Of a DNA stretch of 49,664 nucleotides, positions 45,502 through 49,659 are shown piece by piece; position 1 is the first letter of the stretch, and the number at the start of each line of letters is the position of its first letter. The translations under genes and the position numbers were made by a program. This stretch comes from an uncultured Lautropia sp. GTDB lineage: Bacteria; Pseudomonadota; Gammaproteobacteria; Burkholderiales; Burkholderiaceae_E. The notes under the pieces are model-generated. The model saw nothing but the letters and a program-made list of their open reading frames with translations. It searched no databases and was not told the origin of the DNA. The stretch lies in the NCBI GenBank assembly GCA_938046755.1, contig CALIXC010000260.1, positions 1 to 49,664 of the forward strand, given 5' to 3'.

Positions 45502-45867
45502 TCATTGATGTTCGGTATTGCTCCTGATCAGAGCCGGTTCCATGGCGTCATGGACCACCCGAAGGATGACCAGCGGTGATGTGCCTGACATGTACAGCAG
45601 TGTGTGCCGGGGTGAGTGGACGGCTTCCGTGGGCGATGGAATGTGGTGGCGACTCAGGCGCAGGTGCCATGAGCGGATATGGGTGCCCAGTTCTGGTCGG
45701 GGCTGGCTGCCTGCACGGCAAGGGTCGGAGGCCACGTCGCGCAGTGCGGTGCTCAGCAGCAGCTGGTAGCGCTGGCGGGCAGCCAGGCCGAAATGCCGCT
45801 CGCTCCAGACCAACAGGTTGCGGATGTCAGCCTGGGCTGCGCGGGTCAGCCGGTATTGTGGCTTCAA
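45502..45867 (-). CDS. Type II TA toxin, RelE/ParE family
   Basis: YRLT..A.AD...FG...[18 protein letters not shown] start overlaps the antitoxin stop. Confidence 0.85.
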
Positions 45868-46172
45868 TGGCCTGTCCGTCTGGCTGCTGAGTCTTGAAGG
45901 CTTGCGGATGCCGCATCGCCCAGGTCGGCGATGAAGGCGTCAAGTCCTGCATCATCGACATCCGTGTAGCGGCCGGCTGCCAGGTCGTCCATGCCTTCCT
46001 GAACGGCGCGCTTCAGCGCCTCCAGTTTCAAGGCCTGTTCCTGTTCCTGTCGTTCCACCAGCCGCAGGCCTTCGCGCAGTACCTCACTGGCATTCTGGTA
46101 ACGGCCGGACTGCACCAGTTCTTCCACGAAGTGGTGGTGATGTTCGCTGAGAACGACGTTTCGGGTGGGCAT
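45864..46172 (-). CDS. Type II TA antitoxin, ParD family
   Basis: MPTRNVVL...LVQSGRYQNASEVLREGLRL...L...VQEG.DD. ATG 46172. Confidence 0.88.
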   Translation of the reverse strand: MPTRNVVLSEHHHHFVEELVQSGRYQNASEVLREGLRLVERQEQEQALKLEALKRAVQEGMDDLAAGRYTDVDDAGLDAFIADLGDAASASLQDSAARRTGH

Positions 46173-46217
46173 GGGCGCAAGGGAAGTCCTGGACGGAACA
46201 CGACGGCATGCTACCAA

Positions 46218-46238
46218 CATTGGCATAATATGCCAATG
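46218..46238. promoter_or_regulatory. Palindromic operator, probably bound by ParD
   Basis: Perfect CATTGGCATA-A-TATGCCAATG about 45 bp upstream of the antitoxin ATG. Confidence 0.65.
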
Positions 46239-46359
46239 CTCGGGGTTTTGGTGTGTCTACCAGTGTTGTTGATGCCCGGCCCGGCAGGTCCCCGGCCTGT
46301 TTCCATGGCCCCATCGGAAACTGCGGGAACGCCTCCGTTTGCCGATAGAATCCACCCCC

Positions 46360-47967
46360 ATGACCACACAGCAAGACGAGGTGCGCCGCCGCCGCACCTT
46401 TGCCATCATCTCCCACCCCGACGCGGGCAAGACCACCCTCACCGAGAAGCTGCTGCTCTACGCAGGTGCCATCCAGATCGCGGGCAGCGTCAAGGCGCGC
46501 AAGGCGTCGCGCCATGCCACGTCCGACTGGATGGAGATCGAGAAGCAGCGCGGCATCTCGGTGGCCAGCTCGGTGATGCAGATGGAGTACCGCGACTGCG
46601 TCATCAACCTGCTGGACACCCCGGGCCACAAGGACTTCTCGGAAGACACCTATCGGGTGCTGACGGCCGTGGATGCCGCCCTGATGGTCATCGATGCCGC
46701 CAACGGCGTCGAGCCGCAGACGCTGCGCCTTCTGGAGGTGTGCCGGGCACGCAATACGCCCATCATCACCTTCATCAACAAGATGGACCGCGAGGTGCGC
46801 GAGCCGCTGGAGATCCTCGACGAGATCGAGAGCACGCTGGGCATGCCCACGGCGCCCTTCACCTGGCCGGTGGGCATGGGCAAGAACTTCGGCGGCGTCA
46901 TCGACCTGAAGAAGGAACAGATGCGCGTCTTCCGCGCCGGGCAGGACCGTGCCGGCGCCGAGGACGACGAGATTCTGGCCGGCCTGGACAATGACGAGGC
47001 CCGCAAGCGCTTCGGCATGTACTACGAGCAGGCCCAGGGCGAGATCGAGCTGGTCAGCGGTGCCTCCGAGCCCTTCGACCGTGACGCCTTCCTGGCCGGC
47101 AAGCAGACGCCAGTGTTCTTCGGTTCGGCCATCAACAACTTCGGCGTGCGCGAGGTGCTGGACGCGCTGGTGGATCTGGCGCCGCCGCCGGGGGCCCGGC
47201 CGGCCCTGCAGCGCACGGTCGATCCGTCGGAAGAGAAGTTCTCGGGCGTGGTGTTCAAGATCCAGGCCAACATGGATCCGGCCCACCGCGACCGCATTGC
47301 CTTCCTGCGCATCTCGTCCGGCCGCTTCGAGCGCGGCATGAAGCTGAAGGTGGTGCGCAGCGGCAAGGAGTTCCGCACCACCAACGTGATGTCCTTCCTG
47401 TCGCAGCGCCGCGAGCTGGTGGAGGACGCCTGGCCGGGCGACATCATCGGTCTGCCCAACCACGGCGTGCTGCAGCTGGGTGACACGCTGACCGAAGGCG
47501 AGGAGCTGCAGTTCACCGGGCTGCCCTTCTTTGCGCCCGAGCTCTTCCAGATTGTCGAGCTGGCTGACCCGATGAAGAGCAAGCAGCTGCGCACCGGCCT
47601 CACCCAGCTAGGCGAGGAAGGCGCCATTCAGGTCTTCCGACCGCATCTGGGCGGATCGCTGCTGCTGGGCGCCATCGGCCAGCTGCAGTTCGAGGTGGTG
47701 GCCCACCGGCTGAAGACCGAATATGGCGTGGAGACGCGCTTCCTGCCGGCCCGCTACCAGATGGCCCGCTGGGTCACCTCTGAAGATCCGAACGAGCTGA
47801 AGAAGTTCATCGAGGCCAACGCTGCCCGCATTGCCTGGGACACGGTCGAAGCCCCCACCTTCATGGTGACCTACCGCAGCGACCTGACGGTGGCCGAGGA
47901 GCGCTGGAAGAAGATTCGCTTCCACGCCATGCGTGAGCACGCGGGGCTGGTGTTTCAGTCGGCGTGA
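46360..47967 (+). CDS. prfC: Peptide chain release factor 3
   Basis: RRRTFAIISHPDAGKTT, SDWMEIEKQRGISV, DTPGH, NKMD, HRDRIAF, EEGAIQ. ATG 46360. Confidence 0.97.
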   Translation: MTTQQDEVRRRRTFAIISHPDAGKTTLTEKLLLYAGAIQIAGSVKARKASRHATSDWMEIEKQRGISVASSVMQMEYRDCVINLLDTPGHKDFSEDTYRVLTAVDAALMVIDAANGVEPQTLRLLEVCRARNTPIITFINKMDREVREPLEILDEIESTLGMPTAPFTWPVGMGKNFGGVIDLKKEQMRVFRAGQDRAGAEDDEILAGLDNDEARKRFGMYYEQAQGEIELVSGASEPFDRDAFLAGKQTPVFFGSAINNFGVREVLDALVDLAPPPGARPALQRTVDPSEEKFSGVVFKIQANMDPAHRDRIAFLRISSGRFERGMKLKVVRSGKEFRTTNVMSFLSQRRELVEDAWPGDIIGLPNHGVLQLGDTLTEGEELQFTGLPFFAPELFQIVELADPMKSKQLRTGLTQLGEEGAIQVFRPHLGGSLLLGAIGQLQFEVVAHRLKTEYGVETRFLPARYQMARWVTSEDPNELKKFIEANAARIAWDTVEAPTFMVTYRSDLTVAEERWKKIRFHAMREHAGLVFQSA

Positions 47968-47971
47968 GGGT
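47906..47971 (+). repeat. Direct repeat copy 1 (attL-like), 3' end of prfC
   Basis: 64/66 identical to 49594-49659. Confidence 0.95.
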
Positions 47972-48129
47972 GGTATCGAGACACTGCCTGATGGTGAGCC
48001 TCAAGATCAGGCCCATCTCAGGCAGGCAGCATTGAGGGCTTCATCGGGCTTCTGGCCGGCCAGACAGACCAGATCGCTACACTGGATAAGACAAACAATG
48101 CCATTGAGGAAGGCTGGTCTGGAATGAAG
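47972..48129 (+). pseudogene. Probable relic of an AbrB/MazE-type (VapB-like) antitoxin C-terminus
   Basis: Start-less frame from 48025 reads GSIEGFIGLLAGQTDQIATLDKTNNAIEEGWSG, preceded by frameshifted IETLPDGE. Resemblance is recalled from memory, not searched. Confidence 0.45.
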
Positions 48130-48197
48130 GCTTGCCTAGGGGGCATAATATCCGGTAGCTACAGTTCAGGTAGCAGCAGCTATCGGGAAGCGGGGCA

Positions 48198-49160
48198 TCA
48201 GCACCAAGCCTTCATATTTTCCCAGTCTTCTGGAAAGCCCATGGCTTCCTGATGAGGCCGGTGAGCTTCATGATAGTGCTGAGGGCCCGCTTGGATATGT
48301 TCCTTTAGCCGACGGCGCCAACTACTCTTCGGGCTGACGTGGCGCATCATGTGTGCTATGACTAGCAGGTAGTTGTAGATCTGTTTGGCTGCCTGCCTCT
48401 GTTGCGATCCGTCTTCTTTCGTGATGAGCTCAGTGACCATCTGTTGGTTAAGGCGCTTGATGATGGGTAGTGACAGCGTGAGCTGGCGGTTCCATAGGCG
48501 TCCATGGTGTGCGCAGATGTTTCTGACGGGGGTCAGTGCGTGTAGAACCTTCTGGGTGATATCGACGCTGGGCATGCCAAGGTCTTGAGATACGGCACTC
48601 TTGGCCGAATTGTCCTTGGTGGCCTCAAACCATCTTGATAGTGAGCCAAAGCTCAATGTCTCCACCACCGCCCAGATGGGCGGTAGGAAAGGATCGTCAT
48701 AGTGGTCCAGGTAATGTTTTATGAAGGTCTCTCGACTGCCTTTCAGTTCCCTGGCCATGCGCGCGATGTCGCTGGCATGATCCCATGGGCTGTTGAACAG
48801 GCTGGCTTGAAGATGGGCATGAGACCCGTGGCGCATGGCGAGTGCATGGGCCCAGTGTGTCCGTACCGAGATTTCGATGCGCTCGATGGCCTCCATGACC
48901 AGCAGTCGCAGCTTACGGTCAAAGATGTACAGGGAGAGGACCTGATCGAACGTCGTTCCCGGCTGAAACTGATGCAGGCGGGACTGGCCGGTTTGGCAGC
49001 AGGGCTCGAAAGGTAGCCAGTAGGCGCTGAGGCGGTAGTAGCCTATGTTGGTCAGGTAGCGCTTTGCCCGGGCAGCGTCATCGATACGCATGCCGCGATC
49101 TTGAAGCCTCTTGATCTGCTCGTCGATCGAGAGAGGTTGCTTGTTATAGCGGCAGCGCAT
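48198..49160 (-). CDS. Abi-family (AbiF/AbiD, Abi_2) HEPN ribonuclease
   Basis: K.PLS..EQ...L..RG, IGYYRLSAY, LY.FDRKLR, IERIEISVR, PIW...E..SFG.LS, HEPN RxxxxH motif RNICAH, MGFP..W. Confidence 0.92.
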   Translation of the reverse strand: MRCRYNKQPLSIDEQIKRLQDRGMRIDDAARAKRYLTNIGYYRLSAYWLPFEPCCQTGQSRLHQFQPGTTFDQVLSLYIFDRKLRLLVMEAIERIEISVRTHWAHALAMRHGSHAHLQASLFNSPWDHASDIARMARELKGSRETFIKHYLDHYDDPFLPPIWAVVETLSFGSLSRWFEATKDNSAKSAVSQDLGMPSVDITQKVLHALTPVRNICAHHGRLWNRQLTLSLPIIKRLNQQMVTELITKEDGSQQRQAAKQIYNYLLVIAHMMRHVSPKSSWRRRLKEHIQAGPQHYHEAHRPHQEAMGFPEDWENMKAWC

Positions 49161-49174
49161 ATTTCCTACGCTAC

Positions 49175-49243
49175 AAAAAAGTAACCCCCGCGGTATTGAG
49201 CGTCACCGCAGCGAGCTGCAGGAGAGGCCTGGGGGGTGTTGTT
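49175..49243 (-). ncRNA. abiF-type RNA (candidate antitoxin), unit 1
   Basis: AACAACACCCCCCAGGCCUCUCCUGCAGCUCGCUGCGGUGACGCUCAAUACCGCGGGGGUUACUUUUUU: ACCCCC/GGGGGU outer stem, inner hairpin, U6 tract, between promoter and Abi start. Confidence 0.7.
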
Positions 49244-49250
49244 GAGGAGC

Positions 49251-49278
49251 ATTCTAGGCGAACATGGCCGAAAGTCAA
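49251..49278 (-). promoter_or_regulatory. Sigma70 promoter for RNA unit 1 and the Abi gene
   Basis: TTGACT (49278-49273), 16-bp spacer, TAGAAT (49256-49251). Confidence 0.75.
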
Positions 49279-49403
49279 GGGGCGTGAGGCCTTTGCCACG
49301 GTATGGTTGAAGATGTGGTCTTGGTGACCTGATGAGCGGGGGATGATGGGGTGTTGCGGTTGAAAGTTGGGCCCAAGAAGTTGCGGAAATGGTGATGGGT
49401 AAG

Positions 49404-49459
49404 AAAAAACCCCTTAGCAGCCATCCCGGTGATCTGGGACGACCGAAAGGGGCCGTGTT
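49404..49459 (-). ncRNA. Second small hairpin RNA of the same layout, unit 2 (orphan)
   Basis: AACACGGCCCCUUUCGGUCGUCCCAGAUCACCGGGAUGGCUGCUAAGGGGUUUUUU: GGCCCCUU/AAGGGGUU outer stem, CGGUCGUCCC/GGGAUGGCUG inner stem, U-tract. Confidence 0.6.
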
Positions 49460-49466
49460 GAGAACG

Positions 49467-49495
49467 ACTCTATACGGAAAGGCATGAGTTATCAA
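49467..49495 (-). promoter_or_regulatory. Sigma70 promoter for RNA unit 2
   Basis: TTGATA (49495-49490), 17-bp spacer, TAGAGT (49472-49467). Confidence 0.65.
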
Positions 49496-49593
49496 TGCGG
49501 TACAAGCATGCCTGGCCGCCATTTATTGGTAAGACACATTGATTAACAGTATTGCTGAAGGAAGGTGTTTGGTGACCGATGGAGGCAGAGACA

Positions 49594-49659
49594 GGAAGAA
49601 GATCCGCTTCCACGCCATGCGCGAGCACGCGGGGCTGGTGTTTCAGTCGGCGTGAGGGT
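49594..49659 (+). repeat. Direct repeat copy 2 (attR-like), duplicate of the prfC 3' end
   Basis: Encodes KKIRFHAMREHAGLVFQSA*; two synonymous differences from copy 1. Confidence 0.95.

Follow-up and report, generated by a model that had tools for sequence, protein, structure and literature searches.

A predicted orphan small RNA in a Lautropia prfC cassette belongs to a candidate antitoxin RNA family associated with a distant clade of AbiF proteins

Introduction

Two predicted small-RNA units stand one above the other on the minus strand near the end of a 49,664-nucleotide stretch of DNA from an uncultured Lautropia sp. (referred to here as the window, which is the entire contig C260 of the 96%-complete assembly G000). 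The lower one, unit 1, leads into an Abi_2 (AbiF) gene; the upper one, unit 2, raises the question of what it is, which protein it serves or once served, and why it is still present. The nearest described relatives are the AbiF type III systems, namely PbAbiF with AbiFr (PDB 8VZ6) and C. difficile AbiF with RCd22. According to the available text of these reports, the leader RNA RCd22 neutralises its protein by binding, in trans as well as in cis (10.1101/2025.04.15.648962), each PbAbiF monomer binds one RNA (PMC12737573, PMC13064643), and AbiF is an RNA toxin-antitoxin ancestor of Cas13 (PMC12737573).

Results

Both units lie in a cassette bounded by copies of the prfC 3' end

The two-unit layout given in the initial annotation was borne out, while a boundary around it had been overlooked: both units are inside a cassette of approximately 1.6-1.7 kb, delimited by 66-nt copies of the prfC 3' end, the minus strand of which carries unit 2, unit 1 and the Abi_2 gene (Table 1). 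The right-hand copy is likely an attachment site. The window prfC protein is 99.8% identical to its counterpart in genome G017, the Abi protein of which is assigned to Lautropia mirabilis, which places the host as a Lautropia near that species. The prfC site is empty in G017, while it holds one cassette in the sister genome G005 (the same cassette, at 94% identity, joined directly to the chromosome with no further cassette) and at least two in metagenome contig L369. In assembly G000 a third copy of the repeat was found at C148:1-55 and contig C260 stops 5 nt beyond the right repeat, which together indicate that another cassette is unassembled.

At the prfC 3' end (in the window, at C148:1-55 and at L369:1279-2816) small Abi cassettes of approximately 1.5-1.7 kb were seen to accrete in tandem, each closing with a 65-66-nt copy of the prfC tail and with no integrase inside. 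A ParD-ParE toxin-antitoxin pair (45502-46226, minus strand) lies immediately upstream of prfC in the window; this position upstream of prfC is taken by a clade-A Abi_2 gene in G013 and G015. A start-less reading frame at 48001-48150 (plus strand), the DNA of which is 72% identical to a short ORF of G015 (L030:7457-7648), had no match in a Pfam search; we take it to resemble the C-terminal end of AbrB-type antitoxins.

Table 1. Features of the window and of related loci (positions without a prefix are those of the window)
Feature	Position	Strand	Basis or remark
Left repeat copy, prfC 3' end	47906..47971	+	prfC gene 46339-47967
Abi_2/AbiF gene, clade A, 320 aa, HEPN motif RNICAH intact	48198..49160	-	PF07751, E 4e-56
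Unit 1: abiF-type leader RNA with terminator, and its promoter (49278-49251)	49176..49278	-	weak match to RF03085
124-nt spacer	49279..49402	.	match in G005 alone among loci compared
Unit 2, predicted 58-nt small RNA	49403..49460	-	fold, model R1 score, twin in L369
Unit 2 promoter (predicted sigma70)	-35 TTGATA 49495-49490; -10 TAGAGT 49472-49467	-	homology to twin promoter
Cassette tail, unit 2 promoter to right repeat	49496..49593	.	homologous to tail of clade-B cassette in L369
Right copy of 66-nt prfC 3'-end repeat	49594..49659	+	97% identical to 47906-47971; cassette boundary
Third RNA type	L261:1349-1395, L306:524-574, L307:504-549, L382:243-291, L383:2501-2551, L390:2459-2504
Marinobacter-type stacks (third RNA type over clade-B RNA)	L161:2393-2557, L184, L360, L362, L364-L366, L375, L377, L380, L381

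Unit 2 has the predicted parts of a separately promoted small RNA

The promoter boxes claimed for unit 2, TTGATA-17-TAGAGT, are present on the minus strand at 49495-49467, and the distance from unit 2 to the -35 box of the first promoter is 124 nt, in agreement with the 125 bp originally given. Two promoter-like sites were found at unit 2 against 0.9 +/- 0.9 in shuffled sequence, a count which alone is not above chance; the promoter is supported because members of the RNA family described below carry promoter boxes, and not by the site count alone. It is also homologous to the promoter of a twin RNA in L369 (25/35 positions identical). The RNA consists of a CAACAC leader, an 8-bp basal stem, a U/CU internal loop, an upper stem and a U tract. 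The two-tier hairpin with U tract described in the initial annotation was recovered at -29.1 kcal/mol (z -4.3 to -5.2), with 0/200 shuffles as good.

Both units contain the motifs said to be common to them (CTCAACA after the -10 box, CAACAC, a C-rich 5' arm and GGGG-UU), but the family conserves (C/T)AACAC only and not the leading CT, the sharing of which is likely due to chance. The two units also share a 24-nt repeat (D7) at 71% identity. That no credible ORF follows unit 2 was upheld, the 118-aa ORF at 49166-49522 being without a Pfam match, and a Pfam search of the small ORFs across unit 2 gave no match; what had been missed is the partner gene of the family, which lies downstream on the opposite strand.

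Unit 2 had no match in Rfam 15, RF03085 (abiF) included, at E-values up to 10. Against the family model R1, from the training set of which it was absent, it scored 59.7 bits, and R1 finds one copy in G000. An IS or MITE end was considered and rejected, as the short matches elsewhere in the same genome (C122, C321) have neither the 3' arm nor the U tract. A metatranscriptome contig (X13, depth 4) spans the unit 2 RNA with no differences, but gives neither strand nor ends and carries no weight as evidence here; the contigs of four further public runs did not reach the unit.

The unit 2 family is linked to a separate clade of Abi_2 proteins

A 20-nt match of unit 2 in G017 led to two similar units there, one of which immediately follows another Abi_2 gene and is encoded on the strand opposite to it. 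Relatives were collected RNA-first, by scanning the GTDB genomes with a pattern (at least 119 stretches; of the 119 listed, 80 have flanks of up to 2.5 kb and 39 have 300 nt or less), and protein-first, by a search with an alignment of clade B, as the Abi_2/AbiF group partnered with the family was named; the latter set, for which the best 80 out of 551 metagenome loci were kept, is free of pattern bias. An Abi_2 gene converges on the RNA 3' end in 92 of the 119 listed genome matches (91 by tblastn), while 26 have no Abi_2 gene and one is ambiguous. The ambiguous match (L225) is a pair split by an IS insertion at the U tract, and L173, counted among the 26, was picked up falsely by the pattern and lacks a U tract, so that 25 of the listed matches are genuine orphans. 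Five of the best 80 protein-first loci end at the gene; among the 75 with downstream DNA, 73 have a convergent RNA within 150 nt, with RNA and toxin on opposite strands in all 73, and the remaining two have a related RNA as an upstream leader. Plasmid matches at 50% identity or more also have the RNA (five matched by coordinates; one of four near-identical Xanthomonas plasmids was checked). The initial annotation had looked to homologues followed by Abi_2 genes as support: the cellular homologues are indeed tightly linked to such genes, and are not unlinked terminators, but the gene is convergent with the RNA and not in the leader arrangement.

The partner proteins share 50-64% identity with the G017 protein but about 30-31% with the window AbiF; when 76 proteins were placed on a quick tree, the partners fell into a single group (SH-aLRT 89) at a great distance from the window AbiF, which groups with proteins having abiF-type leaders. 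They are HEPN proteins of 330-360 aa (Pfam Abi_2, PADLOC AbiD), homologous to 8VZ6 (E 5e-30), and their RxxxxH motif, RNVCAH, is invariant in 20/20 aligned sequences. None of the leader RNA types searched for was found upstream of clade-B genes, which often closely follow the type I restriction-modification gene hsdS (seen for 14 of the 32 upstream ORFs that were scanned in 42 loci).

Covariation was 0.376 in the 53 training copies compared to 0.188 when shuffled, and 0.363 compared to 0.168 in the protein-first matches, where the alignment was fitted to the model and related copies do not count as independent (in both cases 0/500 shuffles scored as high, and all slid controls were lower). Hardly any variation was seen among 64 distinct protein-first copies in the unpaired AAYA of the leader, in the basal stem or in the C of the CU bulge; the unpaired bases among these were not selected by a pattern, and their constancy is what a protein-bound surface would show. 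A -10-like box precedes 68/70 family members and a -35-like box 58/70 (loose patterns, counted without a shuffle control). The RF03085 model found no match in 20 family loci, nor in L130 and L161, and the family patterns used for the RNA types gave 0 matches in 460 kb of shuffled DNA.

In sister clades, related RNAs are found as same-strand upstream leaders, which is the position of the proven AbiF antitoxins. A third RNA type, with the same leader and a CCUCU...UACG interior, accompanies sister Abi_2 proteins, upstream or convergent depending on the locus (Table 1); the copies in L306 and L383 had no Rfam match, and similar lone copies occur in viral contigs L042 and L093. Three class-level proteins are 50-52% identical, and a related RNA lies upstream of two of them while none was found for the third; three Lautropia genes at about 45% identity to the L369 toxin had no R1 match; these exceptions argue against a strict RNA-clade rule.

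Judged on sequence and predicted fold, the family is an RNA type outside RF03085 with a convergent layout. Unit 2 almost certainly belongs to it, and is of clade-B origin.

Unit 2 matches the right end of a clade-B cassette

Contig L369, from the same species, carries a prfC gene which is 97.5% identical to that of the window. Its order is prfC, repeat, an intact clade-B gene (plus strand), the convergent RNA, tail, repeat and then a window-type cassette (95%). Unit 2 is identical to this twin RNA at 53/58 positions, the cassette tails at 57/101 columns and the repeats at 65/65, and RNA, promoter, tail and repeat together are 77% identical over 270 nt; unit 2, along with the promoter, tail and repeat next to it, is thus the right end of a clade-B cassette. 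Two of the 5/58 differences close the upper internal loop, and the differences could alter binding. The clade-A module would then stand where the B gene was, an order of events which we infer from this comparison.

Protein and DNA profile searches for a clade-B gene or remnant in the 124-nt spacer were negative, no clade-B gene was found in the window or in the assembly, and in G005 a clade-B query found only the clade-A gene. The suggestion that unit 2 is left over from a lost Abi gene is therefore supported as to its origin, by the clade-B linkage and by the parent cassette in L369. It is likely an orphan antitoxin RNA, its own clade-B toxin gene being absent from the assembly.

Unit 2 is unchanged in a sister genome, and orphan and stacked units recur

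That origin leaves two readings. Unit 2 may be kept as immunity to clade-B toxins which circulate in the species, the reading moderately favoured here and one that the initial annotation had put forward in general form, or it may be a former antitoxin gene left behind by the cassette swap, useless now and not yet decayed, which we consider unlikely while counting it the most serious of the alternatives. No change was observed between G000 and G005 over the 93 nt of the unit 2 interval, compared to 26/445 (5.8%) in the other non-coding DNA of the cassette (Fisher P = 0.013) and a synonymous divergence (Nei-Gojobori) of 0.116 for the Abi gene and 0.081 for prfC, a comparison which comes from one genome pair and which recent recombination could mimic. 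The same tendency is seen against L369, where the RNA has kept many more of its positions than has the tail, and lone copies of the RNA recur in unrelated phage contexts (see below), all of which speaks against a neutral remnant. On the other side, the B-cassette origin is clear from L369, and deletions and insertions do make orphans: two retain the stump of a deleted gene (L140, L226) and in two cases (G076, G328) an RNA has been parted from its toxin gene at the U tract, so that neutral persistence does occur. Only one of the 25 orphan genomes (G328) has an intact clade-B gene elsewhere with the query used, as a useless remnant would allow, a finding which fits decay or immunity alike.

The likely target toxins are common. 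The cluster of the L369 toxin has 23 members, two of which are on 137 and 93 contigs, and that of the G017 toxin has members on 800 and 219 contigs. Stacked units were also found elsewhere: among 15 Marinobacter-type loci, 11 carry an RNA of a sister type which has no gene of its own and stands some 60 nt upstream of the B RNA; it has its own -10 box and is conserved while its upstream flank varies. The 11 loci are probably one lineage, and in the two such genomes searched no toxin closer than their own B gene was found. L355 and G017 have two B units each. Retention for cross-immunity is preferred because of the unchanged interval, the presence of B toxins on hundreds of contigs and these stacks.

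The Marinobacter-type stacks have the layout of the window with other partners. Further Lautropia orphans are present at L294:1501-1560 (G740) and L027:10744-10798 (G017), the former about 20 kb from an Abi_2 gene which has no adjoining R1 match.

Lone copies are found in viral contigs

A looser family pattern matched 85 viral stretches, compared to 4 for a control with a permuted leader. At 30 bits or more there were 63 viral matches (42 distinct cores), of which only one (L084) has an Abi_2 gene beside it within the retrieved stretches. With the strict pattern the toxin was linked in 1/35 viral matches versus 92/118 listed genome matches (Fisher P = 1.6e-16, a value which is overstated as the rows are related). 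The neighbours of the viral copies are unrelated to one another and include DNA polymerase, primase-helicase, terminase, major head protein, endolysin, tape measure and tRNAs. Several copies are within about 20 nt of the stop codon of an upstream ORF, and some may double as terminators. Viral searches with single proteins gave 1 and 0 loci, and BLAST of unit 2 against cultured phages gave chance matches in coding DNA only.

Viral copies within or directly adjoining tRNA clusters were observed at L064:2424-2550 and L079:2496-2636 and in L069, L107, L450 and L472.

RNAs of the abiF type are likewise present in viral contigs (L447-L524; 78 matches, 46 distinct), with an Abi_2 gene within 1.5 kb in 3/78; 7 of the 10 scanned passed the RF03085 cut-off. 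The abiF-type pattern had 0/401 matches in cellular genomes, so the 3/78 figure stands without a matched comparison. These abiF-type viral RNAs are candidate decoys of known AbiF systems. Taken from sequence context, the lone viral copies of both the unit 2 family and the abiF RNA are likely phage decoys against AbiF defence.

The convergent layout raises another possibility, which is that the family RNA is an antisense RNA or a two-way terminator on the 3' end of the clade-B mRNA, and that the orphan and phage copies are plain terminators. The median gap between the toxin stop codon and the RNA end is 12 nt, with overlap in 20/80 rows (17 of them by 3 nt), and the closeness of several phage copies to an upstream stop codon agrees with termination. 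Type I toxin-antitoxin systems with a convergent antisense RNA have a long complementary overlap with the toxin mRNA, and the toxin is a small hydrophobic peptide; the partner here is a HEPN protein of 330-360 aa. Antisense action is less likely because the RNA overlaps the coding sequence by no more than 3 nt in 77/80 rows (20-22 nt in three) and the sister-clade RNAs, as same-strand leaders, cannot be antisense. In addition, the family members have promoter boxes of their own, neither pairing nor termination needs invariant unpaired bases, and permuting the leader removed nearly all of the viral matches. Such a role is considered improbable, and the antitoxin reading is retained.

Unit 1 and the adjacent AbiF gene

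The window AbiF (PADLOC call AbiD) is homologous to 8VZ6 (E 1e-41) and has a dN/dS of 0.34 compared to G005; unit 1 is likely its cognate antitoxin. Unit 1 scored 19.9 bits against RF03085 at 49186-49236, below the cut-off of 37, where the congeneric copies scored 35.6-35.7 bits. Its fold has a z-score of -0.4 to -1.3 in the window and -2.5 in G005, from which it differs by 9 changes in 71 nt. At 49176-49246 it has diverged from its congeneric homologues, with two inserted bases, a changed bulge and a poor predicted fold, although the AbiF gene itself is intact.

The initial annotation had also offered, as one option, that unit 2 serves the adjacent nuclease as a further ligand, in a two-unit array; on that reading it could perhaps offset a degenerate unit 1. 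The two units are indeed adjacent, co-oriented and built on a common leader and stem plan, and unit 1 has diverged as described. However, the RNA type of unit 2 follows clade B, far from the window protein on the tree; the congeneric clade-A loci in G013, G015 and G018 are without unit 2; 0/119 listed genome matches have a same-strand Abi_2 gene in the stretch examined; and G005, with the better-folding unit 1, has the same unit 2. Nor are there repeats as in a CRISPR-like or ToxI-like array, since what the units share is one 24-nt stretch at 71% identity, with separate promoters and membership of different families. The proposal was discarded as very improbable.

Least credible of all is that a clade-B gene sits in an unassembled next cassette, which would make unit 2 a working second antitoxin copy, as suggested by the third repeat copy, the contig break just past the right repeat and the tandem cassettes of L369, for the 5 nt past the repeat mismatch the start of the L369 B cassette, no such gene was found in the 96%-complete assembly and G005 has the same unit 2 with no further cassette.

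Discussion

On balance, the sequence comparisons moderately favour the reading that unit 2 is a clade-B orphan, likely a type III antitoxin and likely kept to neutralise B toxins. For the family as a whole, an antitoxin role towards clade-B toxins can be proposed with good confidence. Unit 2 RNA would be transcribed from its own sigma70 promoter and end at its own U tract; the family RNA would bind the clade-B HEPN RNase and block it, as abiF RNAs do, and a separately promoted RNA behind the clade-B gene would supply the antitoxin. At the prfC site a clade-A AbiF module would have replaced the B gene while the right end of the B cassette (RNA, promoter, tail and repeat) stayed. Selection may then keep unit 2 as anti-addiction immunity to B cassettes, in which case it would neutralise clade-B toxins arriving at, or beside, the same prfC site.

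The clade-B partner resembles those of PbAbiF/AbiFr and AbiF/RCd22 in being an Abi_2 HEPN RNase whose RxxxxH motif is intact and, on sequence evidence, the family RNA resembles the AbiF type III RNAs in being short, structured, equipped with its own promoter and terminator and co-inherited with the toxin. The described AbiF RNAs, in contrast, are upstream co-transcribed leaders which also attenuate the toxin gene, whereas the unit 2 family is downstream and on the opposite strand; co-transcription with a terminator between RNA and toxin, as in type III systems, is accordingly absent. The family further differs from these systems in its internal loop, its single motif and the lack of an RF03085 match, and unit 2 in the window differs in being without a cognate toxin gene. 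With RF03085 unit 2 shares the CAACAC leader, the C-rich/G-rich basal stem running into a U tract and the Abi_2 association, but the family has a 1x2 U/CU loop instead of the abiF bulges, and a convergent position. Unit 2 is not a co-oriented leader of the window Abi_2 gene either, from which it is separated by a second promoter and unit 1.

The viral copies are reminiscent of pseudo-ToxI of phage phiTE, an antitoxin-like phage RNA without a toxin, which has been proposed to disarm a type III system; as far as the available text of that report goes, the toxin in that case is of another family (ToxN), and pseudo-ToxI arose through repeat expansion in escape mutants of one phage (PMC3475682). 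The copies described here are, in contrast, single full units in dozens of unrelated viral contigs, and there is also an orphan on a bacterial cassette. The DUF3800, drum and skipping-rope RNA motifs concern a different protein family, judging from the accessible part of their description (PMC5737381), and the unit 2 family gave no Rfam match to any of these motifs. An abiF RNA has been noted in a lytic cyanophage, and the portion of that article available offers no decoy reading (PMC9964418). In the literature covered, AbiF RNAs were of the leader type only, and a literature search found no report of the unit 2 RNA, of a convergent AbiF RNA or of AbiF decoys (Zilberzwige-Tal 2025 and the Weinberg 2017 supplement may mention them).

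We lean, if only slightly, towards a general picture in which several subfamily-specific RNAs, one of them encoded tail-to-tail with the toxin gene, hold AbiF toxins in check and have become detached from their toxins on a large scale: bacteria would stack non-cognate units at cassette sites, as at this locus and the Marinobacter-type loci, and many unrelated phages would carry lone decoys. AbiF is widespread, and the convergent RNA family provides matched toxin clades and RNA folds with which the evolution of RNA-protein specificity can be followed. If the immunity reading is true, bacterial cassettes with orphan units would offer a clear-cut example of RNA-mediated anti-addiction. The lone copies (about 45-60 nt) on dozens of unrelated viral contigs would predict a common RNA-based counter-defence.
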